DNA of 64,000 nucleotides. It comes from Squalus acanthias. Its lineage: Eukaryota. The position numbers were made by a program, and so were the translations under genes. The DNA is taken from NCBI GenBank assembly GCA_030390025.1, contig CM059431.1, positions 155,808,001 to 155,872,000 on the forward strand. The letters are read 5' to 3'. The notes below the pieces were generated by a model. The model saw only the letters and a program-made list of their open reading frames with translations. It searched no databases and was not told the origin of the DNA. This document shows positions 22,430 to 64,000 of the stretch, piece after piece; within the stretch, counting starts at the first letter, position 1; each line of letters starts with the position of its first letter.

Positions 22430-23110
22430 TGTTGATTCACAGAAAATCTGGAATTCAGCTAGGTGTTTATCTGATTCCACAGTTTATCGGGATCGTGCCA
22501 GGTATGCCTGGGGTTTCCCAGTGTGTTAGGATGCTACCAGGTGAGTATGTGGATTCAGAGTGTATCAGCTGCCGACCAGGCGTGTATGAGGTTTCAAAGT
22601 GTTTCAGGATCCTGCCAGGTTTGTATGGGGTTTCCCAGTGTATCAGGATCCTGCCAGGTGTGTATGGGGTTTCCCAGTGTATCAGGATCCTGACAGGTGT
22701 GTATGGGGTTTCACAATTTATCGGGAACCAGCCAGGTTTGCAAGGGTTTCACAGTGTATCAGGATCCTGCCAGGTGGGTATGGAGTTTCACAGTGTATCA
22801 GGCTCCTGCAAGGTGAGTATGGGGTTTAACAGTGTTCCAGTATCCTGCCAGTTGTTTATGGGGTTTCATAGTGCATCAGGATCCAGCCAGGTGTGCAAAG
22901 GTTTCACAGTGTTTCAGGATCATGTCAGGTGTGTATGGGGTTTCACAGTGTATCAGGAACCAGCAGGTTATGGTGTTTCACTTTATATCGGTGTCCTGCC
23001 AGGTGTGCACGGGGTTTCACAAAATTACAGGTACAAGCAGGAAATGTATGGGGTTTTAAGTTTGTTAGGATTCTGCCAGGTTTGTATGGGGTCTCACAGT
23101 TTATCAGAAC
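22430..23110 (+). repeat. Minisatellite 2 (39-bp unit gtgtatggggtttcacagtgtatcaggatcctgccaggt)
   Basis: Clear 39-bp periodicity; gives 13-aa repeats (ILPGVYGVSQCIR) in spurious ORFs. Confidence 0.92.
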
Positions 23111-32943: not shown

Positions 32944-33034
32944 TTATTCTGTAATTACAGTCAAATGACCCGATACATTTTTGACCGACTTCAGATTTTT
33001 CTGTCCTGTTGCCGAGAATTGATTGTGTGTCAAA
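32944..33034 (-). CDS. NLR terminal coding exon
   Basis: tttttcag|T TTG ACA... = LTHNQFSATGQKNLKSVKNVSGHLTVITE-stop; phase 2 matches the previous exon; resembles an LRR cap. Confidence 0.82.
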
Positions 33035-36000
33035 CTGAAAAATATTAAAAGAACGAAAAAATAATTTTCGATAAGGAGTGGATTCTTCCGTTCACTGTGA
33101 GTAGCAAAATTATGAAATTCATTCAAAATGAATGTGTTTACTCATGCGAAGGACATACATTCTCCACGATATTATGTTTTCTATTTTCCCATATCTAGTC
33201 TATTCAAATTAAAATACCGAAAATGCATTTTACATGTGAAAGAACATTTAATTAATACATAGTTAACCTGGAAACACACCTGATTTCCTTGAGATAAGCT
33301 GTACTCTGGATGAGACGGCACAATGCCGGAACAGAATAGTCAGTCAGTCTGTTGGCCTGTTCGCAATCCTGATTATCGTTACTCAGATCCAGCTCCATCA
33401 GTGAACCGTTTTCACGGAGGGCAGAGACCAGATTTTCCACACAACGATCTGTGATATCGTTAGCTTTTAACCTGCAATGATCGAAAAATAAACAGAAATT
33501 ATATAAAACGCTCACACATTAAAATATACACCACTTGCTAATAATTACTGTGAAATTCCAGAGAACGCGGGAGAAATCTTTCATGATATATGCATTTTTT
33601 TTCTGTTTATAAATTATTTCCGTCTTAATTTGAATTGAAAAGTGAGCTGCCTGATCATCATTCGCACACTAGTTGTACAGTTCAATATTTTAAACATAAT
33701 TACTCACTCCAGTCTCTGTATTTTACAGTCATTTTTCTGCAGAACGGCAGAGAGCAGTTTGACTCCCGAATCTCCCAGTTTATTCTCATTGAGTCTAAAC
33801 AGGAATAACCAAAATCAATAATTCATAGTTAGCAATGCAATAAATAGGAAATATTCGTAATTAATTAATGCATTTAACGTGGGACACTTTGGCCATCCAA
33901 GACGCGAATATAATACCCGTAATTCAAATTCAATTCTATGATTTTTCCCAACAGCGATCTCATATATCATGATTATAGGGTAGGGGAATATATTTTACAG
34001 ATTAATCCAGATTCCCCCGTGGTGCAAAGAGTGCGCTTGATTCGAATGCAATGTTGCCAACATCCAATCTGATCTAATTAAATGAGCATCACAGCTCTTT
34101 CAGATATTACCTGAACAGACATTCCGGTGCCGTCCCTTAGGGTGCCATTTAGCACAGCAGGGAGTGGAATGAGAGAATGTGCTCATTATTTTATCGAATT
34201 CAGTGATTTTTTTTAGCTTTTACCAAATATTACCCCACATGCCAGTAAAACAGTAGTTGTTGATAATGATATTTAACATAGTCAGTGAATTACCTGAGTA
34301 TTTTACACTTTTGTAGCACGGGAGCCAGCTGATGGATGCCTTCATCTTGTATTCCACTTGTACTAAGATTCAACTCTTCTATCAGTTCAACGGCCAGTAG
34401 AGCGTTTGACAGAAACGCAGAGTCAGAAGGTTTAAGAGGGCATTGTGTGAATTTCATTGACTTTATCGATGTTAATGCGGCCTTCATCAGTTTTATGTCT
34501 CCAAATTCAAGAAAATAACGCAATATTTTTAAGAATGTCCTTTGGCTTTGCCCATCTTCCAAGTTCTGAACTCGAATTTTTACATTTTCTGTGAGCCAAT
34601 CCGACACACACTGGAATGCTTCAGAAGGAAATTGCCCCAATTTTCTTTCGAGCTGATCAGTTGAATTCCTTGTGGAGAGACCAGAAAGAAACCGTAAAAA
34701 TGTCTTAAATCTGTCGTCACTGCACGCGTGCCATTCATTGAGGAAGCGTGTCAGGTCATCTCCTGGTGTCCTTAGACGTTTCATAAGTGCTGCAACAAAG
34801 TCCTGCATAACGGAATGAGTGAATGTGTAGTCAACACTACAAAGATCTTTGCCTCGAATCTCCATCATAAACGCAGAGATAACATTGGAATGTTCGAGAC
34901 TGTGGTGATTGATTTGTTTTTTCTTGAAAACAACGGTTTTGTTGCAAAGTCCCTTGTATGCTAACTCGCCCAGTTTCTGCAACATGTCGCGAGAGGTTTC
35001 CGCGTCGCAGCCGCATCTCTCTAAAAGGCTTGTGACGTAAGCGGAGAACACCCGAGTACTGGTTGTGACGGACAATGGTCTCTCCTCCGCTCCTTCTGCC
35101 CGGTGTGACTCTAATAATGAAGCGAGGACCGAGCAGTACAGAGGATTATTGCACATGGTGTACAATGTCTCATTCTGCTCAATATACTCGATTACATCTG
35201 TCAGAAACTGCTCATCTCCAAAATAACGGCGAAAATATTGCTTTATTTTCTCAGAGGTGAAACCCAGGATTTCGAAGGTTCGAATTAGATTCGCCTTTTC
35301 CAGAGACTCCAGTTTCCACGGTCGGCTTGTGATCAGTACTGAGCAGCCCTTGAGCAGTTCCCCCTTTATGAGGCTTCGCACGATTTCTGACACGTCACAG
35401 AAGCACTCGGGATCGAAACACTGATTTTGGGGGTCGTTGTTTCTCTGAATATCTGTGAAATCAATGGGTTGCCTAAATTCTTCTAAATCATCAAATATAA
35501 ACAATATATTTCCGGGTTGTTTCCACAAAAGTTCAAACTCATTTTCGAAATCGGGGTAGGAATCCAGGATCAGGCTATTTAGACAAGTTTTTCCTTTTAT
35601 TAAATTTAATTTTCGAACCTTGAAAGGAAAGACAACTTTAAACTGTTGGTATATTTTCCCTGCGGCCCAGTCACTGATTATGTTCTGTATCATGGTGCTT
35701 TTCCCAATCCCCGAGGCCCCAATTACAACGGTTGTCCCAGAACTGCCTGTTTTAGCGAAACTCAGCAATTGATCCAGCTGAATCTCTTCCAGTTCATCCT
35801 CGATGTTTTTCCTCTGTAATTCTTCACGCTCTCTACCTCGGGCCATCAGTTCATTTTCAACAAGACTCCGCTCACGCAGTGAAGCAACAATCGTTACTTT
35901 AGTATATTTTTGATGCAGAAAAAATCTTCGAGATCTTTCTTTTTCTACAGTGGATATGACTGTTATTTTCTCGTTCTGTTTGCGGAGGTTGTCTTTGTGC

Positions 36001-39000
36001 TGTAGTTCTATATCTAAATATGAACAACGTAATTGGTGCAGTCATTGTAATTCAGGAGAAACATATTTAACAGATCAATGCTATGAAGGAGAAACTAATT
36101 GTCAAGAAATATTGTAAAATATCTAAAATATCTCAGCAATGAGTCATCCCTTAATTATTTTACACTTTGTTGTCCAGACACTCATAGAATTGAAAAAAAT
36201 AGAATTTCTGAAGTGCCAGGAAGCAAGCTTGAGGATTGTAGGCCGTTTGCTGTTGGATTTTGAACTTCTGGTAATGAAGATTTCAAAAATTCGAGATAAA
36301 TTGCTGAGTGAGTAACTCTTGCAGGTATTTAATTTTCACAGGTCAATTTGGGTTATGAACGACTCCTGGTTTCGTGGTGTAACAAACGATGTTCGGGAAC
36401 CGCGTGTCTGAGCAGAAAACGAGTTCCTTCATTATATTCTAGCCACGAGGATTCCATGTGTTCTGATTGTGCTGCTCACTGCTGTAACCGTTAGACACAT
36501 TTTGCTGGCCAGCGGAGCCCGCAGGAGACTACGGGGTCAGAGTAGTGGGGAGAACCGCAGAGACCCAGAGATGGAAAGTCGAAGGAAATCCATCATTTTA
36601 CTGTTTGTTATATCGGTAAAATAAATTTGGGCCAGAAATTATGGTCTCCACGGGTGAGTAAGCTTTGGGTACTCACCCGTAGACCCAACGAAAGTGCCGG
36701 TGTCGCGCATGCACTGCGCATGCGCAGGAAAATGGAGCTTCCTTCCCCTGAAGTAAGGGGTTCAGAGGTCGAACGCGTGCGCCCGAGAGGCAGAGCGCAC
36801 GCAGCTAACTTTGATTTTTTTTCAGGTATCTCCGTGATGGTAAGTACGGAGAACTTGCGCGGGGAAAAAGGAGGCACAAGGCCTGCTTTTAACAAGGTAA
36901 GTGGTGAATTAAATACAATTTAAACACTTTTTCAACAGGTTTATCTTTTTTACATATTTTACAGATAGGTAAGTTTATTTTTAGCACCGTTAAAATGTGT
37001 AAATATATTTTTCAAAAATTTATATTTTTGTTTAAATTAGTTAATTTATGTAAGTTATAGTTATTTTAAAAATGTGATTTTTTTCATATATTTGAGGTTT
37101 TAGTGAGGTTCTGGGGCCGATCTCTATTCATAGATTTGACAGGTCTTCCTGTCAAAATCTATGAATGAAGTGTCCCTGCTCCGATTGGCACTCCATGGCC
37201 AACGTGATCCCAAGGGACGCTTCAAACTAACTGCGCCCCTGCGATACGCAAGCATTGTGTGCCGGTAGCTGCAGGAGGCCCAGGAGCCGAATTCCACGCA
37301 GGCCCGAAGCACAACGGCAGGCGTAGTACGCGCCCGATTCTTGCACCCGCGGGAAGCCGGAGTGCCGAATTTCTGGCCCATTGTTATGATCAGTCTTTAT
37401 CGTGTATTATATTTGGTAGCGAATGTGGTTTTCTGCGTATCAGCCTTTATTACTACCTAGTTTTTTACAAGAAATTTGCTTTACTGTTCTATATATATCT
37501 GTATACACAAAAGTATTTACATGTATATATATACACATAAAATCCATATGTAAACATACATTAGTATCAAAATATTAATTTACCATATTTTGAAGCGCAG
37601 TGAAGATTTCTTATACTTACAAATACTGGTAATGCCCATGGTGAAACCTCCGCTCCAAAAAGGTAAACGCATTATGAGAGCAGAGCAGGACACAAACGGC
37701 ATCAAGTCTGGCCGTCCGACTTTCAGTTTTATTGGTCAATGGAAGGCAACATCGGACTGAGCCCATAACGGGAGGCAGATATATTACCCGCCGTTTTGTT
37801 TTCCCGTCCAAAACAATTTTAACCCACTTGGTGTCAAACTAACCAATTTCATAATAAGTCACTATCAGTCAGCTTGCATACATGCACTGATGCATGGAAT
37901 ATTTGCATTTCGATAAGTTTACTGAATTATGGCATGTCAATTGTACGATGTCAACAACGTTTTGTGAAACAAGTCGAAATAATCCGTACTGGCCTCATTA
38001 TATTTTTTGTCATAATTTGGTTCTTTTGTAATTATACATTTGTCAAATATAAGTGATACGGGATGAAATTGGCCATGGGCGGGGGACGCTAAACTAGATG
38101 TATTGTATGGATCGCCTGTTATAAGCTTCGCTCAATATTCAGATCCATTGACTTTAATAGAACGGATAATCTGGCGTGTGTTAATACGGTGGGGGAATGC
38201 GATTCTGCTTGTTTTGCGTGGTTGCCCCTGTCGAACTTCAGCCTCACAAATTTTAAGTTAAAAACAAGTTCTCTCCATAAATAATATACTTTGTTATTCT
38301 GACGGTAAATTAGATTTGGATACCACCTACCTTCTAGATCACTTTCTCCGTCTGTACCTTTGGTCAGTATCTCTGACAATGTTGTTTTCAGCTTGGTTTC
38401 TTTACCCTGCAGATGAAACAAAGTGCACCAGATTGTTCTTTGTGCCCGAGCTCCCTTTTCCAGCACGGTATCGAAAATAAGTTCGGAGGCTTCATTTCTG
38501 CGGTGACTTTCAGATAGGGTTCTTATATTCTAAAAATAAAATATATTGCAATCAAATACAGCAAAGTGATTTTCAAAATCGGATAGGAAAGGTCTTTTCT
38601 CTTTCTCTCTTTCCTTAGGAAAGGAATAAATGGAAACGCTCAGAATCGGGTGTTAATGCAGAAAACAATTAAGTTCGCCATTACTGAGACGGCAGGCGTG
38701 AAATGCAATGAACATTAAGTCGAAACAACAATAACTCATGCAGCAGAACGTCCCAATGCGCTTCAGAGGAGTTTTACCAAACAAAACTTAACACCAAGCC
38801 TCAGAGTTATATATTAGCACAGGTGACCAAAGCTTGGTCATAGAGGTAAATTGTAAAGAGCATCTTTGAGAAGAAAGAGTTAGAGATTCAGAGAGGTTTA
38901 CGGAGGGAATTCCAGAGGTTAGTGTCTAAACCGCTGAATGCACGGCAGGCAATGGTGAAGCTATGAAAATGGGGGTGCACAAGAGGCCAGAATTGGACGA

Positions 39001-42000
39001 GCGCCGGGATCTCGACAGGATTACAGGACAGGACAACGTTACATAAATAGAAAGGACCAGCGTTGAGTCACCCAGGGCGCCTGGATTTTCTGTCATTATA
39101 ACCAGGCGCTTTATCTCCCAATCCTGACCTTATATAAGGCACGCCAATCACATCATTATATCATACGCGCAGATAAGTTGTACCTTAACTAATGAGCTTC
39201 ATTCACAGAACTTTGTTTATTCACATTTGCGTTACATAACTGAGGAGGTATTGGACAAATTGAACAGTTTAGCATCATACATTAGTCGCGGTTTTTTTTA
39301 AGAAATGGGACATTATGGCATTCATGGGGAGAGAGGATGTGGCCTCGGGAGATGTCCCAGAGCATTGGGCCGAAGTAGGGTCGGGACTTATGAAGAAGTA
39401 GAATGGAAGAAATGACGTGGATATGTTCAGTAGAAATGGTTTAAACCCGCGCAGCCTGCAGTGGCTCAATCCAGTTCGATGGTTTACTGGAAACGCACGG
39501 CCGATTTCATAGAGAACGGGCGGAAAATTTCGGCCCTGATCGTAGGGAAATTCCTACAGTTAACTTTGTATATGCCAGTTAATGCCAGTTATTACAGTTT
39601 TGATCTGTCTTCAGGTTTTCCACTGGGACTGTAATGAGCACGCGTAATACTTGCGCTGCTCGCTGTGACTTTTCGAGGGCTCTTGGCTACTGGAATTACA
39701 TTAACTGCACGAAGTTTGGCAGTGAATTCTCAGATCCCCAGGATACTCATTGTGGCAGAACACCGATGACAATGCCATTGAATGTCAACGGCAATTGGTT
39801 AGGATTTCTCTAGTTGCAGGTAGGCAGTACCTGGGACTTAGGCGGCATAAATGTAAGCTGCCACTTATCGGCCAAACCTGGATGTTGTCCAGTTGTTGCT
39901 TCATGCGGGCATGTACTGCCTCATTTTCTGAGGAATTGCGAATGTAACTGAACACTGTGCAATCATCAGCGAGGAACCTAAATTCTGAATGTTTGAAGGA
40001 AGTTCAATGATGAAGCAGCTGACGATAATTGCGCCCAGCTGGCAACCGTTTAAATATCACGGTTAATCCATGAGTTCCTGTACTCTTAATATGAATGCAT
40101 TCATGAAAATTCCAGAAAGAATACATTGACAGAGAGATATCTCAGAAGAGCACTACAAATGTTGGTTACACTGGCACCGGACAACAATTTCATGGTGGCT
40201 ACAGAAGTTAAAGAAGTACAGCATTAAGTATTGCTTATATCGTTAATTGCACAGAACAATGTCTGTCTAAACAGTCAATCATATGACTCATTTAACACTA
40301 TATGAAGCTAACATATATGAAGCATACCTTGTGATCTGTTTCAGTAAACACGTTTGCCTCTACGAGCGATTGGCTAACGTCCTCTATTACCTCCTCAATT
40401 GACTGTTCTAGTCTCTGACGATAGGAAACGATAATTCTGCGCAGCTGGATATTCGTGCATCTCGCCAGCGTTAGTAAGATTTTATTACCTGAATTTTCTG
40501 TCAAGGTGCAAATGAGAACACATTAACATACAGTGGCCGCTATGAAACAGTGAATAAAGTGAACTAACAGCTATGGCAACAGCAGTTGTTCAGAGTCTTT
40601 CAAGCTGTGGCACGCCCTGTGGAGCGTTACTGATGTGGTATTCAGAATTAACGCTGCCTTTTTTGCTGGAGTTAAGATAAATAGCCCAGTCCTTGAAACA
40701 TGTGGTCGCTGTTTAAAATAAGTATGCGGTAGAGAGGTTGAAGCTCAGAGGAACTGATTTTGAATCAGTGGGAATGAATTCTATGCCTGGAGTCCAAAGC
40801 AGATGAACCGATACACTGGGGACAACCACAAAGGGAGAGTTGGGACAGGAGTGTAACAGGGGGGATGCGGAGACGACATTTGAGATAAGATGGGCGAGGG
40901 ATGTGTAAATGAGTAGGAGGATTTCACAAATGATCAATGTGGGATAAGAAATCAATGTGGATCAGTTAATGAGGGCACTACGGATCCATGCAACGAATGT
41001 TGTATTTGAATCGGAGTAGTAGAGCTCTGTCTAAGCTGGAATATATAAAGGGCAGTGCCAAATGTCGCATAAAGAATCAGGTATAAAACACACAGAAGCA
41101 TGCATAAAGTAACAACATTCAGTCCCTTCCCAGCGGCATACCGTGGCTGCAGTGTGTACCATCTAGAAGATGCACAGCAGCAACTTGTAAAGGCTTATTG
41201 ACCCAAACACGCGAACTCTATCACCTAGAAGGACAAGAGAAGCAGGCAAATGGGAACACCACCACTTCCAAGTTCCCCTCCAAGTCTCACAACTTCCTGA
41301 CTTGGAACTATAATGCCGGTCCTTCATCGTTTCTTGGCCAAAATCCTGGCACTTCCCCCCAACAGCATTGTGGGAGTACCTTCACCACAAGGACTGCAGC
41401 AGTGCAAGAAAGCGGATAACCACCATCTTCTCAAGCACAATTAGGGATGGGTAATAAATTTTGGCCTTGTCAGCCACGCCAACATCGCTTGAATGAATAA
41501 AAAATATATATTTATATTGAAACGTATGTCCGGATAATTACCCTATAACTGTTCCGGACGATGATCTGAGATCCCAGGTTATATTGCACAGTGTATCACG
41601 AACATACCAGGTGTGCATTGGTTTCACAGTGTATCACGGTGCTACCTGCTGTATATAGGTTTCCACAGTATATCAGGAAACTGTCAGTTGTGGATGGGGC
41701 ATCAGAGTGTATCAGGATAGTGAAAGGTGTTTATGGGGTTTCGCGGTGTATCAGGATACTGACAGGTGTTTAGGGGGTTTCAAAGTACATCAGGATCCTG
41801 CAAGATATGTATGCGGTTTCACTGTATATCAGAATATGCCAGGTGCGGGTGGGCTTTCAAAGCCTATCGGGATCCTGCCAGGTGTGTATGGGGTTTCACA
41901 TTTTGTCGGGATCATATCAGGCATCTGCGGGCTGAAAACGGTATGAGGATCCTGGAATGTGTGTATGGGGTTTCAGATTGTAACAGGATTCTAAGAAATA

Positions 42001-48000: not shown

Positions 48001-51000
48001 CAGTACTCTCCAGTTTCTTGCCATTAAGATAATAAATTGCTCTAGGATTTTTCCTGCCAAAGTGCATCACCTCACACTTTCCAGTGTTGTATTCCATCTG
48101 CCAAATCTCTGCCCACTTACTTAGCCTGTCTATGTCCCCTTGCAGGTTTTTTATGTCCTCCTCACTCACTACTTTCCCTCCCATCTTTGTATCATCTGCA
48201 AATTTTGATATGTTACACTTGGTCCCTTCCTCCAAATCGTTAATATAGATTGTGAAGAGTTGGGGACCCAGCACTGACCCCTGTGGAACACCACTAGTTA
48301 CTGATTGCCAGTCTGAGAATGAACCATTTATCCCAACTCTTTGCTTTCTGTTAGATAGCCAATCCTCTATCCATGCCAGAATATTACCCCCAATCCCGTG
48401 ATTTTTTACCTTAAGCAATAATATTTTGTGTGGCACCTTGTCAAATGCCTTTTGAAAGTCTAAATACACTACGTCCACTGGTTCCCCTTTATCCACTCTA
48501 TATGTTACTTCCTCAAAGAACTCCAGCAAATTTGTCAAACATGACTTCCCCTTCGTAAAACCATGCTGACTTTGTCCTATTAAATTATGATTATCCAAAT
48601 GTCCTGTTACTGTTTCCTTAATAATGGACTCCAAAATTTTACCTACCACAGATGTTAGGCTAACCGGTCTATAGTTACCAGCCTTCTGTCTACTGCCCTT
48701 TTTAAATAAGGGTGTTACATTAGCAGTTTTCCAGTCTGCCGGGACCTTAGCGGAATCCAGGGAGTTTTGAAAAATTATTACCAATGCATCTACAATCCCT
48801 ACCGCCACTTCCTTCAAGACTCTAGGATGTAAGCCATCAGGTCCAGGTGATTTATCCGCCTTGAGTCCCATTATTTTACCGAGTACCACTTCCTTAGTGA
48901 TTTTGATCGTGTTTAGCTCCTCTCCCCCTATAGCCCCCTGTTTGTCCAGTGTTGGGATATTCTTCGTGTCCTCTACTGTAAAGACTGATACAAAATATTC
49001 ATTCAGTGTTTTTGCCATCTCCATATTTCCCACCATTAATTTCCCGGTCTCATCCTCTAAGGGACCAACATTTACTTTAGCCACCCTTTTTCTTTTTATA
49101 TAACTATAAAAACTCTTACTATCTGTTTTTATATTTTTTGCTAATTTACTTTCATAATCTATCTTCCCTTTCTTAATCAATCTTTTTGTTATTTTTTGCT
49201 GCCTTTTAAAGTTTTCCCAATCCTCTGTCCTCCCACTAGATTTAAATCGGGCTGGGAGCAGTGTTCTGGCGAACCGTATAACTAGGGCAGTAAACATTGA
49301 TTTAAACTAATGAAGGGGGCTTAGGAGGATTCATGAAAGAGTAAATTTAAAGCAGCGGGAGAAATGTCTGTGCTCTAGAGCAGAGTAGAATTTTGGGTAA
49401 AAATAAGCAGTGTATCAGGAAGGGATAGACAGAGTAATAAAAGTAATAAGACAACGGCAACTTAGGTGACATCAGGGAAGAATAGAAATTAGTCACAGCT
49501 GAAGCCTCTATATCTGAATGTGCGAAGCATTCGCAACAAATTTGATGAATTAATAGCACTGATAGAAATTAACAGGTTTGATCTAATAGACATAAAGGAG
49601 ACGTGGTTGCAAAGTGACCAAGGTTGGGAACTAAATATTGCAGGATACTTAACTTTTAGAAGAGATTGGCAAACTGGAAAAGTAGGAGCGGAAGCCGTGA
49701 TAATAAAGGATGGGATAACGACAATTGAGAGGAAGGATCTCAGCTCCGAACATCAAGAAGTAGTATCAGTTTGAGTGGAGCTAAGAAACAGCAAGGGGAA
49801 GAAAGCATTGGAGGGAGCTGTTTATAGGCCCCCAAACACTAGTTAAAAAGAAGGGCGGAATATAAATCAGGAAATATAGAGGCGCATGTAACAAGGGTAA
49901 TACGGTGATGATAAGGGACTTTGAGCTACATATAGGCTGGGCAAACCAAATTTGTAGTAATAGTGTGGAGGACGAATTCATTGAATTTATGCAAGATCGT
50001 TTTCTAGATCAGTATGTTGGGGAACCAGCTGGGGGAAGTGCTATTTTATATCTAGAATTGAGCAATGAGAAAGGGTTCATTAATAACCTTGTATAAAGGG
50101 CTCTTTAGGGAAGAGTAAGCATAATAAGATAGACTTTTTTATTGATTTTTAAAGTGATTTAGTTAAATCCAATTCTAGACTCTTAAATCTAAACAAAGCA
50201 AACTATTAGGTATGGGGTGTGAGCTGGCTACGGTAGATTGCGAAAATACATTAAAAGGTATGATGGAAGACAAGCAATAGCTAGCATTTTAAGAATTAAT
50301 ACATAATTTACAACAAATGTATATTCCTTTAAGGCACAAAAACCCCACAGGAAAAGTTGTACATCCATGGCTAACAAGAGAAGTAAACAATAGTATTAGA
50401 TCAAAGGAAGAGGCTTATAATGTTGCCAATGAGAGAAGTATGCCTGAGGATTCGGTGAATTTTAGAATTCAGCAAAGGAGGGCCAAGTAATTGATAAAGA
50501 AAGGGAAAATATAATATGAGAGTAAACCAGCGAGAGATATAAAATTCAGACTGTAAAAGCTTCTATAGGTATATAAAAAAGGGAAAGCTTAACGAAAGTA
50601 AATGTTGGTCTGTGAAACCCCATACACACCCTGGCAGGATCCCGATATACTATGAAACCGCACACAAGCCTGACAGTAACCTAGTATACTCTGAAAACCC
50701 ATACACACCGGCAGGATTGTAACGAGATTCTGCGATATATCTATGGGGTTTAATAGTATATGATGACCATGCCACATGTTTAACGCGTTTTACAGTATAT
50801 TGGGAATCCTGCTCGGTGTTATTTTGGTTTCAAGTGTATAGGCATCGTGACAGTTGCGTCTGGGGTTTCACAGTGCATCAGGTTCCTGCCAGGTGTGTAT
50901 GGGTTTTCACACTGTGAATGGATCCTAACAGGTGTGTACGGGGGTTTCAAAGTATTTCAGGATCCTGCAAGGTAGGCATGCGGTTTCACAATCAATCACG

Positions 51001-54000
51001 ATCCTGCCTGGTGACTTTTGGTTTGCACATTGTATTTGCTTCTGCTAGGTTTGTATTGCTTTTCAAAGTGGATCAAGTTCCTGCCAGGTGTGTATGGTGT
51101 TTCACAGTATATAATGATCCTGCCATGTGTGTATTGGGTTTCACAGTGCATCAGGATCCTGCCAGCTGCATTTGGGTTTTACACACAACGGGACCCTGGC
51201 GCATATGTATGAGGTTTAACAGTGTATCTGGATTTGGTCAGATGTGTAAATCAGCGCTGTTTCGCTGACAGTTTACATCGACGCCAGCGTCGATACCCAC
51301 TGCCAGACGGATTTTTACACATTCAGTTGCAGAAGGGGGCCTGTAGAAGAGGGATGGAGGCAACAATCGTGAGAGTGAGATAAGCAATTGGGAGTAGAGA
51401 CCGTCAATGTGCCGGATATAGCTGTTCAGAAAAAAGAGTAAACTCACCGGATGTCTCTGCGGTTCTGTCATATCCGCTGGCTCTTTCTTCTTGTAGCCGT
51501 GGATTTAGATCTTCATTCACTGTGTGTGTGGGGCTAACCTCACTGTAATTATCCGCGCTGAGCAGAGTTTCTGGAGGAGCATTTTCCTGTTGGCTCTGAT
51601 TAGAACAAGAATATGATTAGATATGAAAGGGCTGACTTTTCCGTTTCTGAGCTGCCCGGCCACAGATTTCCTCAGCCTGTGCAACAATGGGCACTGTTAC
51701 TTGGGATTCCCAAGCGAGGAGGCACAACATATACCGTAGATTTAAAGCGTAATGCCGATGCTAATAGCAAAAGCAAAAACAACAGATGCAAGGAAGTTGT
51801 TTGATACGATGGTTTTACTAAAGCTAGAGTCGATATGATGCCCAAAAGCTTATATTGTCTTGAAGAGATCAATCGCTTTTATCATCGGGCTGAGGGAAGC
51901 TTTAACGTAAAATTCACAAATATCTGACGAGACATTTCTGAGCAGAGGTGAAGAGCGATCGCTGCACTAAAAGGAAAAGTACATCGTAGCAGAATCATGA
52001 AATGTAAATCCCGTAGACATAGCAAAGCTGGACACATTATTTCATTTCGCTACCAATGATTCAGAGTTTCAATTGATGCCTGACCCCAAATACCAGTGTC
52101 AAGAATGGAGGAACCGGGATACAAACCGGAGAGTTGCGGGCGATACGGAATAAGATTGATGATTGAAGTGACCATTGAAATGTAGTTAACAGTCAGGGTA
52201 TAGAGGCGGGATGCAGATAAAATACCAGAGTTCAGATTCGAGACGAAGTTAAAATTCAAGGTCAGAGTTGTGGTTAGAGTTGAAGAGGCAGCTGCAGTCT
52301 AAGTGTTGGGAAAGGAGTGGATGGAGATGATCAAGGGATTATTTAGTGACTCGTCCCACAGGATGAATCCTAATTCTTGCAAAATAAGGGACAAGTCTAT
52401 GATTAAAGCTTGGATGAACGTTATTTTGCACAACAGACATTGAGCATGAAGGAGGACCGATCTGAAAACAAATCTTCCTGAATTACTTCAATTTAATTCC
52501 AGAGCTGCCAGTAAAACTGATATTCCTGAATATCGAAGGGCAGTGGCTGTTGGTGATGAACACGGAAGTAGACGAAATTCCAGTTTCAGAGCAGTGGTGA
52601 TTCCAAAGCACGCAGTTGCCTCCGCATTAGATTCGGGGCAAAAATCGGAAAAATTAGAGTCTGAGAGGAACCCGAGCGTAAAATAGGTAAGGAAGTAGAA
52701 ATCATGAGCTATCATCCTTTTCCCTGATGTATAATATCTCAAAGGGTGTGATGGACCATGTTGCCATTGCGCCGTGCAATTCGCCTACTTCAGAAAAGAA
52801 AGGGCGCGAAAGCAGAAAAACTGCTTATATTTAAACAAGAGAATCTTGTCAATGCTACAATAGGTTAAGAAAATTACTTTTCCTTTCAGGTCAGACATAC
52901 CTCATATTCGACCCCAGCGAATAGATTTATATGATTCTGATTTACACGGACACCGTCCACCGATCCTTCAATTGCTTCAGGAATTCTAACCGGATACAAT
53001 TCCGTATCTTGGGATTGTTGAGTTTCAGCGTCTTTCGACAAAGTTAGTCCAACTCCAGTAATATCATCGCCTGTAAAATACAATTGGAACAAGAAATATG
53101 GGAGTAGTTGTAATAAACCTGGTTACTTTGGAAAATGTACTTAGACATCTCTTGGACTGCATCAAAACAATTCCTTAAAACGAGGAGGGAACGGCAAATA
53201 ATTAATAACGATTATGAATCTATCTGTCTGACTGTCTTTCTGCCTGGCTCGCTGTTTTGCTGTCTGTCGATCAATCTATATATTATCTATGTTGGCATCC
53301 GGGAATGCGCAGAACACCTCGAGTCTCTTCACTGGGAGAAAGCGGAAGTCAAGCGCAAGCAGCGCAAGGAGCGCACGTCAATCCAAGCACACCACCCACC
53401 CGCCCGTTCAACCACCATCTGCCCCACCTGTGACAGAGTCTCTAGGTCGCTTATTGCACTCATCAGTCACCTGAGAACTCATTTTTAATGTGGAAGCAAG
53501 GCATCCTCGGTTCCGAGGGTCTGCGGTGGCATAGTGGTTAGCACTGGTGCCTCACAGCGCCAGGAACCCGGGTTCGAATCCGGCCTCGGGTGACTGTCTG
53601 TGTGGAGTTTGCACATTCTCCCCGTGTCTGCGTGGGTTTCCTCCGGGTGCTCCGGTTTCCTCCCACAGTCCAAAAATGTGTGGGTTAGGTTGATTTGGCT
53701 ATGATAAATTGACCCTTAGTGTTAGGGGGGGATTAAATATGTGGGGTTACGGGGATAGGATGGGATATGTTAGGGGGAATTAAATACGTGGGGTTACAGG
53801 GATAGGGTGGGATATGTGTCGGTGCAGGCTCGATGGGGATTCTGTGGGGGAAAGCAGGTACAGGGTACTGGATTTGGATGATCAGCCATGATCTTATTGA
53901 ATGGCGGAGCAGGCTCGACGGGCCGAATGGCCTACTCCTAGTTTCTATGTTTCTATGTAAGAAGACATTATTTATAAAGCCATCGGTCTATCTGTTTACA

Positions 54001-57000
54001 CTATTGATGGATTAGCTCATCTATATTCTGGTGTAATGGAATACACGGCTGGTTAAAGTATGCAGTCGATGCATCATCATAAGCACACTTCAGGGTGAAG
54101 GGTAAAAGCACAAGCAGTGAATTTACCGACAGTTGCCTATATGTTGGTTCGTGCTGGCTGGCGCGAACTGGGCACGCGTCAATGGGTGTAATTGTGGCTT
54201 TCTTACTTTGTGAGTTAAATTAAAACCTGCTGAAGTGAATGGGCAGCCGCTTTTACATCTCTCTCGATTTTGATATCCTTTGACTATGTTCGCTCGTACT
54301 TTCGATTCGCTATCGCCCATTTTACACCATCACACGACGACACATTACCGCCGAGAACGATGCCTGTGCCGTAAGGTGTCGTCCTGAGACCCACCCGATA
54401 TTTGGCATTTGGTCTCGTTTACAGCAGATTGGGGAGGTGCAGTCACCTGCTGAGTCTCCACAGGCAGCTTGCGAAGTGACCATGACTTTAATGTCGGCTT
54501 CTCAATGGGGCGACTGGGAAAGTTAAATGCGTTCTGGATGGAGCGTCGACCAGATGAGGGCGAGATAGAAGTTGTCGACAGAGAGAGAGTGTGGGACCGG
54601 TAGAAGTGCGACGGAGGCAAACATCGGGAAAGTGAAAGAGGCAATCGAGAATAATATCCGGCGAGATACAGTAGTTTTTATTTGGTGCTAGAAGGGGAAC
54701 TCCTGAAATTAATGGCTCCACATTCGGTTAAATATTTTCTGAAACTTATCTTGTGTTCGGGGTCTGCAGAAGACCCTTTAACGATCGCCGGTTCGATGGA
54801 TCGATTTAACCGGAACCTCAGCCGTCAAAGACATTTTACCGGAGAGAGCAAAAGGAAAGCCATCGTTGAACCGAGATTGAGTGTGAGATTTGACAGAAGT
54901 CAAGAGGTCATTTCAATTCGCAATTCGAGTAAAATTTACCTCACTTTTATAGATGTGAGTTAACAGTCTCCGATAAGCTGGAATATACAACTGAATGACA
55001 AGGGAAAGAAAACATTGCTTGAAGTTTACTGGATTGAATTCAATGACTGGCGGACATATCTATTAAACAAAAAGAGAAATCTCACCGGATGTTTGTGCGG
55101 TTCTGTTATATCCGCCGCCTCCTTTTTCTTCCAGCCGTGGATGTAGATCTTCATTCACTGTGTGTGTGGGGCTGATCTCACTGTAAATATCCGTGCTGAG
55201 CAGAGTTTTTGTCGGAGCATTTTCCTGTTGGCTCTGATTATAAAAAAATATGATTAGATAAAAAATGGCTGACTTTTCGGCTTCTGAGCAGGCCAAGGCA
55301 CAGACTTCCGCAGCCTGTGCAATAACCGGCACTGATATTTTGAGATTCCCAAGGGAGTGCGTAAAACATATTCTGTAGATTTACATCGTAATGTGGATCC
55401 TAATAGCAAAAGCGAAAAAAACAAATGCAGGAAAGTTGTTTGAGAAGATGATTTTACTAAAACCAGAGTCCATATGAACCCGAAAAGATTATTTTGTCTT
55501 GAAGAGATCAATTGCTTGTATCATCGGGCTGAGGGAAGTTTTAACGTAAAATTCACACATATCTGACTAGACAAGTCTGAGCAGAGGTGAAGCGCGATCG
55601 CTGCACTAAAAGGAAAATTACATCGGAGGAGAATCCGAAATGGAAATCCCGTAGACGTAACAAAGCTGCACACAAATAGGTTCATTTCGCTTCCAATAAT
55701 TCAGAATTTAAATTGATGCCTGACCCCAAATTCCAGTGGTAAGAATGGTGGAACCGGGAAACAAACCGGAGAGTGGCGGGCGATACGGAATAAGATTGAC
55801 GATTGAAGTGACCATTGAAATGTAGTTAACAGTCAGAGTATAGAGGCGGGGATGCAGATACAATGCTAGAGTTCATATTGGAGACGAAGGTACAAATTCA
55901 AGGTCAGAGTTGGGGTTAGAGTTGAAGAGGCAGCTGCAGTCTAAGTGTTGGGAATGGAGGGGAGGGAGATGATCAAGGGATTATTTAGTTACTCGCCCCA
56001 CAGGATGAATCCTAATTTTTGCAAAATAAGGGACAGTTCTATGATTAAAGCTTGACTCAAAGTTAAGATGGACAACAAATTTCGAGTATGAAGGAGGACC
56101 GATCTGAAAACAGACCTTCCTGAATATCTTCAATTACATTCCAGAGCTTCCAGTAAAACTGATTTTCCTGAATATCGAAAGGCAGTGACTATTGGCGATG
56201 AACACGGAAGTCGACAAAATGCCACTTTCAGAGCAGTGGTGATTCAAATGCAACGATTTGCCTCCGCATTAGATTCGGGGCAGAAATCAGTCAAAATTAG
56301 CCTCTGAGAGGCACCCGAGCGGAAATTAGGTAAGGATGTAGAAATTTCAGCAATCATCTTTTTCCCCCATTTATAATACATCAGAGGGAGTGAGGGTCCA
56401 TTTTACCATTGCTCAGTGCAACTTCTGAAAAGAAAGGGTGCGAAAGCAGAAAAACTGCTAAAATTAAAACACTAGAAATCTAGTCAATGTTGCCGTTGAT
56501 TAAGCAAGGTCCTGTTCCATTCAGGTCAGACATACCTCATATTCTACCCGAGCGAATAGCTTTATATGATTTTGATTTGCACGGACTCCGTTCACCGATC
56601 CTTCAATATCTTCAGGAATTCTATCCGGATACAATTCAGTATCTTTTGATTGTTGAGTTTCAGCGTTTGTCGACAAAGTTAGTCCAACTCCAGTAATATA
56701 ATCTCCTGTAAAATATAAGTGGAACAAAAATTACCGGAGTAGTTGTAATAAACGAGAATACTTTGGGAAATGTGCATAGAAATCTCTTGGACTGCATCAA
56801 AGCAATTTATTAAAACGAGGAGTGAACGTCAAATAATTAATAATCGTTATTAATATATCTGTCTGACTGACTTTCTGCCTGTCTCGCTGTTTACCTGTCT
56901 GTCGATCAATCTATATATTACCTATAAAGCCATCTGTCTATATGATTACCCTATTCATGGATTAGCTAATCTGAATTCTGGGGTAATGGAATACACGGCT

Positions 57001-60000
57001 GGTTACTGTATGCAGTCGATGCATCATCATAAGCACACTGCAGGGTGAAGGCTTAAAGCACAATTAGTGAATTTACCCACAAATGCCTATAAATTGGTTG
57101 GCGCGAACTGGGCACGGGTCAATGTTTGTAATTGTGACTTTCTTATGGTGAGAAAAAATTAACACGTGCAGAAGTGAATGGGCAGCAACTTTTACACCTC
57201 CCTAGATTTTGATTTCCATTGTCTACGTTCGCTAGTACTTTCTATTCGCTATACCCATTTTACATCATCACACGACGCCACATTACCGCCGAGAAAGGTC
57301 CCTCTGCCGTAAGGGGTAGTCCCGAGACACGCCCGATATTGGGCCTCTGACCTCGTTTACAGCAGACCGGGGAGATGCAGCCACATTCAGAGCCTCCACA
57401 GGCTGCTTGCGAAGTGACCATGATTTTAACGTCGACTTCTCAATGGGGCGACTGGGAGAGTTCAATGTGTTCGGGATGAAGGGTCGACCAGATGAGGGCG
57501 AGATAGAAGTTTTCGGCAGAGAGAGAGTGAGACCGGTAGAAGAGCGAGGGTGGCAAACATCGGGAGAGTGAAAGAGGAAATCGAGATTAATGGCCGGCGA
57601 GATACAGTGGTTTTAATTTGGTGCTAGGAGGGGAAATCCTGAAACTATTGGTTCCACATTCAGTTAATTATTTTCTGAAACGTATCTTGTGTTGGCGGTC
57701 TGCAGAACACCCTTTAACGATCGCCGGTTCGATGGATCGAGTTAACCAGAACCTCAGGCGTCAAACACATTTTACCGGAGAGAGCGAACGGACAGCCATG
57801 GTTGAATCGAGATTCAGTGTGAGATTTGACAGAAGGACCAGACGTCATTTTAGATCATTTTTATAGCATTTCGAGTATAATTTACCTCACTGTTATAGAT
57901 GTGAGTTAACAGTCTCAGAAAAGCAGGAATACAAAACAGAATTACAAGAGAAAGAAAACATTGCTTGAGGTTTACTGCATTGAATTGAATGACTGGCCGA
58001 TATATCTATTAATCACAAAGAGAAATCTCACCTGATATTTGTGCGGTTCTTTCATATCCGCCGCCTCCCTTTTCTTGCAGCCGTGGATGTAGATCTTCAT
58101 TCACTGTATGCGTGGGGCTGACCTCACTGTAATTATCCGTGCTGAGCAGAGTTTTTGTCGGAACATTTTCCTGTTGTCTCTGATTATAACAAGAATATGA
58201 TTAGATATAAAATGTCTGACTTTTCGGTTTCTGAGCTGACTAAGCTTCAATTTTCCCCAGCCAGGGCCATAACGGACACAGCTATTTGAGTGTCTCCAGG
58301 GCGGTGTTACTGTAGACATAAATCGTGATGCGGATCCTAATAGCAAATGCAAAAACAACAAATGCATGAATATTGTTTTTTAAGATGATTTAATTCAAAC
58401 TGGAGTTGTAGTGATCGCAAGAAGCTTATTTTGTCTTGAAGAGAGCAATCGTTTCTTCGTAGGTTTCAGGCAGTTTTTAACGTAAAATTCACAAACATCT
58501 GACGAGTCAGCTCTGAACAGAGGTGAGCAGGAATCGCTGCATAAACAGGAACAGAACATCGGAAGCATATTCAAGACATTTAAACCCCATAGGCATCGGA
58601 AAGCTGGGCACATAGGTACATTTCGGTTCCAATGATTCTGATTAAAGCTGCGCTAAATAAATACGTGACACCAAATTCTGGAACAAAGAAAGATGGAACC
58701 GGAAAACAAGTCGGACAGTGGCTGGCGAAACGGAGTCAGATTAATGATTGGAGTGACGATTGAAATGCAAATCACAGTTAGGGTATAGAGACAGGGACGC
58801 AGGTAAAATGCGAGAGTCGTGACTGGAAGCGCAGGTACAAATTCAAGGTAAGAGTTCGGGTTAGAAATGTGGAGGCAGATACAGTCTAAGTATTTGATAT
58901 GGAGGGGAGGGTCATGACCAAGAGGTAATTAAGTTACTGGGCCCACAGGATGTATCCGAATTCTGGCAAAACAGGGGATAGAACTATGATTGACGCTTTC
59001 CTGAAAGTTATTTGCACAACAAACGTTGAGCATTAAGGAGGACTAATCTGAAAACAGATCTTCCTGAATATTTTAATTATATTCCAGAGCTTCCAGTAAA
59101 ACCGACATTGCTGAATTTCGAAGTGCAGTGACTGTTAGTCATGAACACGGATGTGAACCAAATACGACTTTCAGAGGAGTGGTGATTCCGATACACGGAG
59201 CTGTCTCCGCATTAGTTTCGGGGCTAAAATCGGTCAAAATTAGCGTCTGAGAGGCACTCAAGCGGACATTAGGTAAGAAAGTGGAAATCTCAGCAATCAT
59301 GCTTTCCCGTCATGCAAAATGTCGCAGAGGGAGCAATGGCCCATGTTAACATTGCACAGTTCAACTCCCCTACTTCAGAAAAGAAAGAACGAGAGACATA
59401 AAAACTGCTTATATTTAAACAATAGACGTCTAGTCAATGCTACCACAGGTTATGATAGGTCATGTTCAACTTATCTTAGACATACCTCATATTTTACCGG
59501 AGTCAATAGATCTTTATGATTCTGATTTCCACTGATACCGTCCACAGATCCTTCAATAGCTTTAGGTAATCTATCACGATACAATTCGATATCTTTGGAT
59601 TCATGAGTGTCAGCCTCTGTCGACACAGTTGGTCCAACTCCAGTAATAACATCCACTGTAAAGTACAAGTGGAAAAAAAACCATCTCGGAATAGTTGAAG
59701 TAAACGAGGATACTTTAAGAACATTACAAGATAAGACATTGGAGCAGGAGTCGGTCATTAGGCTCCTCGAGCCTGCTCCACCATTCAATAAGATCATAGC
59801 TGATCTGATCTTGGCCTCAACTCCACTTTCCTGCCCGCGTCCTATAACCCTTAACTCCCTTATCGATCAAAAATCTGTCTATCTCAAACTTAAATAAATT
59901 CAATGACCCATCGTCCAAAGTCTCTGAGGAAGAGAATTCTAAAGATTCACGACCCTCTGAGAGAAGAAATTCCACCTAATTTCCGATTTAAAAGGGTGCC

Positions 60001-63000: not shown

Positions 63001-64000
63001 ACCTATGCCAATTTCCACGTGGCTCAGGTAGTAATGCGGAGATTATTACCTTTGTGTTCTGCTTTTTAATATAGCCCCTAGCTGCTCAAACTCCCTCAGC
63101 AGAACCTCTTTCTTTGTCCTACATAGGTTATTGTTACCTACATGACCACGACAACTTAATCTTTCCCTTCCCACTTTGAAAAATATACTTAGATATCTCT
63201 TGGACTGCATCAAAACAATTCAAAATAAGAAGAGGGAACGTCAAATAATTAATAATCATTATGAATATACTGCCTGACTGACTTTCTTCCTGTCTCGCTG
63301 TTTGCCTGTCTGTCGATCAATCTATCTTTTATCTATAAAGAGACCTGTCTATATGATTACCCTATTTATGGATTGGTTAAACTGTACTCTGGTGTAATGG
63401 AATACACGGCAGTTTACTGTATGCAGTCGATGTATTATCATAAGCACACTGCAGGGTGAAGGCTTAATGCACAATCAGTGAAATTACCGACAATGTCCTA
63501 GAAATGGGCACGGGGAGGGGATGCAGTTTTGACATCGTGAGATTAATTGGAACGTGGTTAAGTGAATGTGCAGCCCCTTTTACATCTCTTCTGATTTTCA
63601 TTTCCACTGGCTACTTTCGCTGGTACTTTCAATTCGCTCTCGCCCATTTTACAACATAACAATAAGCCAAAATTACCGCCTGGAATGATCCCTGCGCCAA
63701 ACAGGGTAGGCCTGACCCCCACCCGAGATTGAGGTATACAGCATTGAAATGAAATAGTTGTGATTATATCAGTTCAACAAAAAGAGTAAACTCACCGGAC
63801 GTGTATATTCTTTTGTCATACCCGTTCGCTCCTTTCGCTTGCAGCCGTGGATGTCGAGGTGCATTCAATGAATGTGTGTGGCTCATCCTGTAAGTATTCA
63901 TGCTGAACAGATTTTCCGCAGGAGCATTTTCCTCTTCGTTACGATGAAATATTTCAGATTTAATACTGACAGGTCTATGCGTTATAGATGTATTCGTATG
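32944..64000 (-). CDS. Spliced NOD-like receptor (NLRC-type): N-terminal array of degenerate CARD-derived repeats, intact CARD-like domain, FISNA-like linker, NACHT, short LRR; 5' end outside window; at least 1205 aa
   Basis: Exons in transcription order: 64000(open)-63796, 59655-59486, 58179-58032, 56705-56536, 55233-55086, 53070-52901, 51595-51448, 40497-40328, 38529-38331, 36013-34294, 33794-33708, 33471-33280, 33034-32944. All junctions are GT-AG with matching phases; total 3618 nt, no internal stop. Confidence 0.75.
33280..33471 (-). CDS. NLR LRR exon (192 bp)
   Basis: cattgcag|G TTA AAA... = LKANDITDRCVENLVSALRENGSLMELDLSNDNQDCEQANRLTDYSVPALCRLIQSTAYLKEI, donor AG|gtgtgt, phase 2-2. 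Confidence 0.9.
33708..33794 (-). CDS. NLR LRR exon (87 bp)
   Basis: tttag|A CTC AAT GAG... = RLNENKLGDSGVKLLSAVLQKNDCKIQRLE, donor GA|gtgagt; ribonuclease-inhibitor-type LRR, phase 2-2. Confidence 0.92.
34294..36013 (-). CDS. NLR large exon (1720 bp): FISNA-like segment, NACHT NTPase, HD1/WHD/HD2, first LRRs
   Basis: Acceptor catatttag|AT ATA GAA (DIELQHKDNLRKQNE...). Walker A GASGIGKST, Walker B-like ILFIFDDLEEF, sensor-1 VLITSRP, MCNNPLYC, WHD motif YTFTHSVMQDFVAA, LRR start IEELNLSTSGIQDEGIHQL. Donor CTCAG|gtaatt (phase 2). Contains ORF 34290..35846. Confidence 0.95.
36628..37380 (+). mobile_element. Complete MITE in the NLR intron (possibly PIF/Harbinger-ISL2EU group)
   Basis: Perfect 13-bp TIR tgggccagaaatt (36628-36640) / aatttctggccca (37368-37380); no transposase ORF. 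Confidence 0.85.
38331..38529 (-). CDS. NLR CARD-like domain exon 2 (199 bp)
   Basis: ttatttttag|AAT ATA AGA = NIRTLSESHRRNEASELIFDTVLEKGARAQRTIWCTLFHLQGKETKLKTTLSEILTKGTDGESDLE, donor GAAG|gtaggt (phase 1). An alternative phase-1 donor AAAG|gtacag lies at 38358. The A-x-x-L-I-x-D-x-V-L-x-K-G pattern resembles the C-terminal helices of CARDs. Confidence 0.85.
38700..39060 (-). mobile_element. L2-like 3' remnant
   Basis: aacgtcccaatgcgcttca...ggagggaattccagagg pattern. Confidence 0.5.
40328..40497 (-). CDS. NLR CARD-like domain exon 1 (170 bp)
   Basis: ccttgacag|AA AAT TCA = ENSGNKILLTLARCTNIQLRRIIVSYRQRLEQSIEEVIEDVSQSLVEANVFTETDHK, donor AAG|gtatgc; phase 1 to 0. Confidence 0.85.
41560..44650 (+). 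repeat. Minisatellite 2 array inside the NLR intron, interrupted by a LINE fragment at about 42700-43090
   Basis: Same 39-bp unit. Confidence 0.92.
44650..46325 (+). mobile_element. CR1 with a large internal deletion (ORF1 start joined to ORF2 RT)
   Basis: Cys-rich ORF1 start near 44915, then RT motifs (YINDID...KFAADTK); tail (ttctatga)n. Confidence 0.8.
46330..50610 (+). mobile_element. Degenerate CR1 (ORF1 esterase and endonuclease region), split by a younger CR1
   Basis: ORF1-like gtggtaggtgacaatatagtc; ORF2 RSIRNKFDEL...ETWLQ; resumes at 49242. Confidence 0.85.
47124..49241 (-). mobile_element. Young 5'-truncated CR1 with an uninterrupted ORF2 RT portion
   Basis: ORF 47363..49297 (644 aa; the first residues come from flanking DNA) with YLDFQKAFDKVPH, GVPQGSVLGP, KFADDTK; tail (cataagaa)n; ttaa duplicated at 47120-47123 and 49242-49245. 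Confidence 0.95.
50610..51250 (+). repeat. Minisatellite 2, continued; the first 100 bp or so are inverted
   Basis: ctgtgaaaccccatacacaccctggcaggatccc (reverse unit) at about 50610, then forward units. Confidence 0.85.
51448..51595 (-). CDS. NLR N-terminal repeat exon B1 (148 bp), degenerate CARD exon-2 derivative
   Basis: ttctaatcag|AGC CAA CAG = SQQENAPPETLLSADNYSEVSPTHTVNEDLNPRLQEERASGYDRTAETS, donor CCG|gtgagt; phase 0 to 1, compatible with the acceptor at 40497. Confidence 0.75.
52901..53070 (-). CDS. NLR N-terminal repeat exon A1 (170 bp), degenerate CARD exon-1 paralog
   Basis: tattttacag|GC GAT GAT = GDDITGVGLTLSKDAETQQSQDTELYPVRIPEAIEGSVDGVRVNQNHINLFAGVEYE, donor GAG|gtatgt; same length and phases as exon 40328-40497. 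Confidence 0.78.
53291..53522 (+). mobile_element. RTE-type LINE 3' fragment
   Basis: Encodes a terminal C2H2-like motif CPTCDRVSRSLIALISHLRTH; absent from the other repeat units. Confidence 0.7.
53523..53838 (+). mobile_element. HE1-like V-SINE (tRNA-derived)
   Basis: A box tggcatagtgg (53527-53537), B box ggttcgaatcc (53571-53581), V domain tgtgtggagtttgcacattctccccgtgtctgcgtgggtttcctccgggtgctccggtttcctcccaca. Confidence 0.9.
53839..53958 (+). mobile_element. CR1 3' UTR joined to the SINE
   Basis: gcaggtacagggtactg...gggccgaatggcctactcc...tttctatgtttctatg, similar to 4641-4750. Confidence 0.8.
55086..55233 (-). CDS. NLR N-terminal repeat exon B2 (148 bp)
   Basis: ataatcag|AGC... SQQENAPTKTLLSTDIYSEISPTHTVNEDLHPRLEEKGGGGYNRTAQTS, donor CCG|gtgaga. 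Confidence 0.75.
56536..56705 (-). CDS. NLR N-terminal repeat exon A2 (170 bp)
   Basis: attttacag|GA GAT TAT = GDYITGVGLTLSTNAETQQSKDTELYPDRIPEDIEGSVNGVRANQNHIKLFARVEYE, donor GAG|gtatgt. Confidence 0.78.
58032..58179 (-). CDS. NLR N-terminal repeat exon B3 (148 bp)
   Basis: ataatcag|AGA CAA CAG = RQQENVPTKTLLSTDNYSEVSPTHTVNEDLHPRLQEKGGGGYERTAQIS, donor CAG|gtgaga. Confidence 0.75.
59486..59655 (-). CDS. NLR N-terminal repeat exon A3 (170 bp)
   Basis: actttacag|TG GAT GTT = VDVITGVGPTVSTEADTHESKDIELYRDRLPKAIEGSVDGISGNQNHKDLLTPVKYE, donor GAG|gtatgt; YRDRLPKAIE matches YRQRLEQSIE of the intact CARD exon 1. Confidence 0.78.
59717..63172 (-). mobile_element. CR1 LINE inserted in the intron between exons B4 and A3
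   Basis: RT and endonuclease fragments (YLDFQKAFDKLPH, MGDFNLHI); acttt on both flanks; empty site visible in the other units (tactttgg(a/g)aaatgt). Confidence 0.92.
63796..64000 (-). CDS. NLR N-terminal repeat exon B4 (longer form, cut by the window edge)
   Basis: Frame open to the window end: HTNTSITHRPVSIKSEIFHRNEEENAPAENLFSMNTYRMSHTHSLNAPRHPRLQAKGANGYDKRIYTS, donor CCG|gtgagt; homologous to B1-B3 and to CARD exon 2. Confidence 0.7.

Follow-up and report, generated by a model that had tools for sequence, protein, structure and literature searches.

What do three tandem pairs of short exons encode when they lie in frame upstream of an intact CARD in a shark NLR gene, and from what were they derived? 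The question is raised by a 64,000-nt stretch of the Squalus acanthias genome (assembly GCA_030390025.1, CM059431.1:155,808,001-155,872,000), called the window here, in which all exons and exon-like segments cited are on the minus strand unless stated. The array (51400..59716) consists of three genomic units of exon A, intron, exon B and intron, with 77-86% identity between units. Its exons are A3 (59486..59655), B3 (58032..58179), A2 (56536..56705), B2 (55086..55233), A1 (52901..53070) and B1 (51448..51595), each A being 170 nt long (phase 1 to 0) and each B 148 nt (phase 0 to 1). The CARD is encoded by the intact exon 1 (40328..40497, 170 nt, phase 1 to 0) and exon 2 (38358..38529, 172 nt, phase 0 to 1). 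We consider that the A+B array probably forms a flexible, acidic, unfolded spacer of ~320 residues, spliced before this CARD; its expression, disorder and function we infer from the comparisons below.

Exons A1, A2, A3 and CARD exon 1 all have the same length, AG/GT borders and phases. The original prediction, made from the sequence alone, had noted the shared length and phases and had taken A for a paralog of CARD exon 1 that lost the death fold while keeping its frame; coordinates and borders bear out the first point. In gapless alignment to exon 1, A1 showed 11/56 whole-codon identities (11/57 with the split codon, exactly at the positions predicted), and A2 and A3 10/56 each. The BLOSUM62 scores of A1, A2 and A3 were 34, 26 and 25, equalled by 0, 1 and 0 of 20000 shuffles (p<=5e-5). 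DNA identity to exon 1 was 73/170, 73/170 and 75/170, compared with 44-45 in shuffles, none of 10000 reaching the observed value in each case. A profile was built from nine exon-1 segments of other sharks and chimaera, window sequences excluded. It scored A3 at 15.3 bits (P=8e-7), A1 at 7.8 and A2 at 3.8, reached by 0, 0 and 15 of 2000 shuffles, respectively. When the 1308 open segments of the window were scanned in six frames with this profile, exon 1 ranked first, followed by A3, the least decayed copy, and A1; A2 was not among the matches. Profile-profile comparison of A with exon 1 gave E=1.8e-5 over 47 columns. Reciprocally, the two top single matches of the A1-A3 profile among 132 fetched proteins were CARD exon-1 segments (independent E-values, iE, 6e-5 and 4e-4). 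A is more similar to exon 1 of some other sharks (16-17/56; 17/56 with P0122, relatives being cited by P number) than to the window's own exon 1 (10-11/56). On these alignments the predicted paralogy holds, and A is an old paralog of exon 1, not a recent copy of the exon 1 of this gene. No Pfam match was found for A1-A3, A3 and the Stegostoma repeat described below had no usable match in the ESM Atlas, and of 25 candidates from a word-indexed search of longer proteins with A3, none scored. A whole-library profile search with A1-A3 returned two matches, both unrelated repetitive proteins scoring through summed short stretches, which were rejected.

As reference for the intact domain, the two-exon module of a Mustelus relative was modelled on a 15-row alignment including the window exons. 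The model had a predicted local distance difference test (pLDDT) score of 86 and seven helical segments. In a VIA structure search, ten of the top 11 matches were CARD-titled (best Z 11.8, root-mean-square deviation 2.1, 96 aligned), and the top ten Foldseek matches were CARD-bearing chains, none at E<=0.001. By this model the intact two-exon module is a CARD. The Pfam CARD profile fell short of its cut-off on window exon 1 alone (E=0.012); among relatives, P0119 passed (40.4 bits vs 23.9) and P0120 and P0125 had no match. Exon 1 corresponds to model residues 1-57, which in the relative comprise an extra N-terminal helix and the beginning of the helical bundle, and exon 2 would supply the remainder, the back helices. 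B was tried as a decayed exon 2 and rejected: there was no hidden Markov model match, profile-profile E was 0.57-0.72 and DNA p was 0.34-0.79. B is polar and, as far as detectable, unrelated to exon 2. Since exon 1 holds the front helices only, the back half of the CARD fold is missing from A+B whatever the substitutions in A, and on the model A+B cannot rebuild the six-helix fold. It is chiefly on this ground, which the original prediction did not put forward, that the predicted loss of the death fold is supported.

The substitutions within A point the same way. Large hydrophobic residues occupy 8/14 core positions in each A copy and 13/14 in exon 1, and at 6/14 all three A copies carry a polar or small residue. 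At positions 8-50 there are two prolines per A, compared with one in 13 intact exon-1 segments combined. Helix cost is 0.59-0.66 for A and 0.41-0.52 for the 13 intact segments, A lying above all 13. By charge-hydropathy, all A and all B are placed on the unfolded side of the dividing line. The motifs quoted in the original prediction, YRDRLPKAIE in A3 and the prolines of LYPVRIPE and LYPDRIPE, are present. Pro30 is invariant in the three copies and lies inside the long helix; Pro26 is in A1 and A2 only, falls where two helices of the model meet and may be harmless.

That the frame was kept could be quantified. Between the three units, no indel was found in 318 exon columns and 20 in 1426 intron columns, and 65/318 exon columns differed compared with 393/1376 intron columns (p=0.003). 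The six exons contain no stop, and 12/12 splice dinucleotides are intact. When drift was simulated at intron rates, the combined neutral chance of six such exons was ~2e-5. The amino acids changed freely, with 15 synonymous and 46 non-synonymous changes (expected synonymous share without constraint, 0.27). Pairwise ratios of non-synonymous to synonymous rates (dN/dS) were 0.72-0.95 for A+B; for A alone they exceeded 1 in two of three comparisons (1.57 and 1.19), which was not significant, and counts on positive selection rest on three paralogous copies. Thus the frame is selected and the amino-acid sequence is unconstrained, a pattern that would be expected of a spacer.

The array is in frame with the rest of the gene. 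Starting with A3 and ending with the final LRR exon, 12 exons with matching phases give a single frame of 1127 codons, and 11/11 introns are GT-AG. B1 has the closest phase-1 donor identified upstream of CARD exon 1. Downstream of the CARD are the NACHT exon (34294..36013, 1720 nt, open frame; Pfam NACHT E=6.5e-35, NOD2_WH, NLRC4_HD2) and three LRR-region exons within 32944..33794 (33708-33794, 33280-33471 and 32944-33034, the last with the stop codon). The first Met of the frame is codon 488, within the NACHT exon, so the CARD needs exons upstream for its start. NACHT, winged helix, HD2 and LRRs share one open frame, which identifies the gene as an NLR. The closest relatives of the NACHT exon are shark 'NLRP3-like' models, with 58-59% identity at most. 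In a quick NACHT tree the window joined P0010/P0011/P0015, P0009/P0120 and P0027 (support 92), outside the clade of NLRs bearing the repeats as a tail (support 100). The tree leaves the orthology of the window NACHT unsettled, with no orthologous set holding it. The window gene is an NLR of the shark NLRP-related expansion.

The original prediction did not include the sharing of the repeat with carpet sharks, nor the possibility that the repeats are the tail of an upstream NLR. Among the 132 fetched proteins, the A and B profiles matched NLR models of Chiloscyllium plagiosum (LOC122544084, XP_043539032-37), C. punctatum (XP_072420837 and XP_072420839) and Stegostoma tigrinum (XP_059498759), single matches being weak (iE 0.002-0.5). 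In P0125 and P0099, B-like segments recur at a spacing of 103-106 residues, which is the length of A+B (106 codons) and is independent of score. The segments between B-like matches align to A without gaps at 10-17/56. For four of them chosen solely by this position the identities were 10-16/56, again gapless, and a profile of these four scored A1 and A2 at 9.2 bits (1/1000 shuffles each) and A3 at 4.7 (5/1000). Profiles of nine A-like segments (18-25 bits) and of B-like segments (18-33 bits) are inflated, because five of the A-like and all the B-like segments were first found with window profiles. A structure model was built on the natural tail repeats of C. plagiosum as a stand-in for the window A+B. 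The repeats had pLDDT ~30 with one short helix in ~480 residues, and carpet-shark repeats are accordingly predicted to be unstructured.

In P0117, P0099, P0123 and P0125 the repeats come after NACHT-LRR. In isoforms X1 and X4 of LOC122544084 the repeats lead into a terminal CARD-like module, and P0125, a Chiloscyllium model, has the order NACHT-LRR-repeats-CARD. NCBI isoform sets are usually based on RNA alignments. In P0010 (XP_072420839, the accession next but one after P0117), sequence of the repeat family stands ahead of a second NACHT. No protein fusing two NACHT domains was noticed among the relatives inspected, each having at most one P-loop motif. Inspection had suggested another decayed exon 1 just ahead of the last repeat segment in P0010 and P0125, which was not significant (47 and 148 of 500 shuffles) and was rejected. 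Residues 1-50 of P0117, a tail-bearing C. punctatum NLR, weakly match the B profile (8.9 bits, 0/500 shuffles; Stegostoma counterpart, 206/500), and a relative of B may be among the first exons of the family.

Taken together, accessions and models suggest a tandem cluster in which the order is NLR, repeats, CARD, NLR. The window holds a fourth B-like segment, B0 (63796..63940), which has an open frame and an intact GT donor and is one codon short compared with B1-B3. B0 scores higher against the carpet-shark B type directly after the LRRs (41-55) than against the other B type (28-34); B2 and B3 favour that other type and B1 is mixed. No AG acceptor is present at the homologous place in B0, of which ~60 bases upstream are visible before the window edge. 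This pattern would fit an NLR lying upstream, a short way past the window edge. For the other end of the tether, the LRR end of such an NLR and a first exon that belongs to the window gene itself appear about equally likely, and both transcript types may exist.

The array could have arisen as follows. An old copy of exon 1 would have been paired with B in place of exon 2 and then freed from the need to fold. The resulting 318-nt cassette, which is phase 1-to-1, frame-neutral and now present in three tandem copies, would have multiplied through unequal crossing-over. Its product would be a tether that keeps the CARD apart from the rest of the receptor, with length and polarity weighing more than sequence.

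Several observations weigh against this account. A2, taken alone, is weakly significant against the exon-1 profile. The whole-library search with the A1-A3 profile did not recover the carpet-shark proteins, which are uncharacterised automatic gene models. The exon-1 profile matched none of the nine carpet-shark A-like segments, so their CARD origin rests on the window A as a link; three of the nine show a weak gapless likeness to window exon 1 (p<=0.005). The charge-hydropathy measure discriminates poorly between A and intact exon 1, 3/13 intact segments also lying on the unfolded side. The disorder model was built on a 4-row alignment, and its internal control, a CARD at depth 1, had pLDDT 45-53, though helical. 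The neutral chance given above overstates the case for selection, as the finding was chosen for intactness and gene conversion may have homogenised B; B2 and B3 are 92% identical, compared with 78% in introns. Finally, the 11-kb repeat-filled intron between B1 and the CARD could conceal another first exon.

Other roles can be imagined for the same exons. If the spacer were bait for pathogen proteases, its cleavage would free or activate the CARD-bearing part, as in an NLRP1/CARD8-like tripwire that has dispensed with FIIND. A fast-changing segment that is predicted to be disordered and adjoins a CARD in an immune receptor would suit this, as would the domain order of P0125, the two dN/dS values above 1 for A and the precedent of CARD8 in the accessible part of its report (PMC10249858). 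We regard it as unlikely: those two values were not significant and the pooled counts are neutral, CARD8 requires self-cleavage by FIIND according to that same part, and FIIND was matched in 0/6 relatives scanned (E<=0.01), nor was a FIIND-sized exon identified in the window between B1 and the CARD. An extended form of this idea, which we hold to be decidedly unlikely, makes the protein a FIIND-free shark counterpart of NLRP1. It would consist of LRRs, a long disordered tether recycled from dead CARD exons and a live terminal CARD, with that CARD either shared with the following NLR of the cluster or continuing in frame into it, and with the tether as a length-variable, fast-changing protease bait.

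Two further readings were considered. The repeats might be dead or skipped, the untranslated remnants of a decaying multi-CARD array. Intact arrays of this kind are common in the family (five modules in P0119, three in P0120), B0 lacks the homologous acceptor and amino acids change neutrally, yet such remnants would hardly retain all six exons without an indel or a stop and with every splice dinucleotide intact. That B is not a decayed exon 2 and that three carpet-shark species have the repeat in an open frame also make this quite unlikely. A might instead be a regulatory half-CARD that folds upon binding and swaps helices into a CARD or caps a CARD filament, dampening signalling. The core hydrophobics that were kept lie mostly at positions 24-40, A3 keeps a YRxRL-like motif and exon columns are less variable than intron columns, which would suit such a role. 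But Pro30 and glycines stand within the long helix, the YRxRL-like motif is lost in carpet-shark copies and synonymous changes are not in excess, so we think a half-CARD very unlikely. The tether remains our preferred reading.

Some other features of the locus were observed. The intron between B1 and the CARD contains a 647-codon reverse-transcriptase open frame resembling that of a long interspersed nuclear element (LINE) at 47366-49306 (minus strand), and the array is interrupted between A3 and B0 by a second LINE-like element (~59716-63170). A 39-bp tandem repeat (13 codons, frame-preserving) forms arrays at 22478-23107, 41658-44521 and 50826-51165, two of them within the B1-CARD intron. 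On the plus strand, each A-B intron carries a stretch of 184-185 nt (52503-52686, 56145-56329 and 59088-59272) with AG...GTAAG borders in 3/3 copies. One of its frames is open for ~50 codons; lengths and stops vary by copy and changes look neutral. As a coding exon it was rejected, because frames disagree between copies, changes were 7 synonymous and 27 non-synonymous and there was no meaningful Pfam match; it is possibly an antisense non-coding exon or due to chance. In the intron before the NACHT exon, 36436-36615 (plus strand) is a broken, stop-flanked fragment with 48% identity over 60 residues to P0121, a Callorhinchus model with a 7-transmembrane receptor domain. The N-termini of P0005, P0009, P0015, P0025, P0120 and P0124 have hydrophobic stretches followed by basic residues, beside or replacing CARDs, which look like membrane anchors or signal peptides.

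If the tether account is right, the locus is a traceable case in which half of a folded signalling domain became a repeated disordered region with selection on frame alone. The window copies retain their CARD ancestry; the carpet-shark copies have nearly lost it and would be taken for anonymous sequence of low complexity. The locus also points to an NLR architecture of cartilaginous fish, either NACHT-LRR-disordered tail-CARD or two tandem NLRs with a spacer in between. In the literature on shark NLRs and degenerate CARDs within our search, which most subscription papers lay outside, there was no account of this repeat or of this architecture. A shark NLRP-related expansion has been reported for the whale shark (PMC8455134); the part of that paper available does not discuss these repeats, and its supplementary NLR lists may name some of the genes. 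By that paper it is an open question how inflammasome sensors are built in sharks in the absence of NLRP orthologs, and the locus offers defined junctions that bear on it.

The carpet-shark NLR models are the nearest in arrangement, with A-like and B-like segments alternating at the same spacing. They differ in that their repeats are mostly after NACHT-LRR, include extra segment types absent from the window and lack an exon-1 profile match in the A-like segments. Among shark and ray NLRs with tandem intact CARD modules, which belong to the NLRP-related expansion, those of Scyliorhinus torazame (XP_072354261, five modules) and Mustelus asterias (XP_078087540, three modules) share the same exon-1/exon-2 module, in tandem and before NACHT; identity between the window CARD exon 1 and the Mustelus module is ~50%. 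In those arrays both halves of the module are intact, whereas the window repeats a decayed exon 1 alone, with a foreign partner exon. In NLRP1 the domain order is NACHT-LRR-FIIND-CARD. CARD8, as described in the part of PMC10249858 available, likewise joins a disordered region and a CARD in one immune sensor. FIIND is present in both NLRP1 and CARD8; in the window, unlike these, the part predicted to be disordered derives from a CARD exon and no positive selection was shown, and the relatives scanned lack FIIND. The nearest general concept is domain atrophy (Prakash and Bateman 2015, PMC4432964), in which, by the accessible part of that paper, core elements are lost and the domain is retained in the protein. 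The partial domains described there are functional and often stabilised, whereas the remnant in the window is predicted to be unfolded and has become a repeat of several copies.

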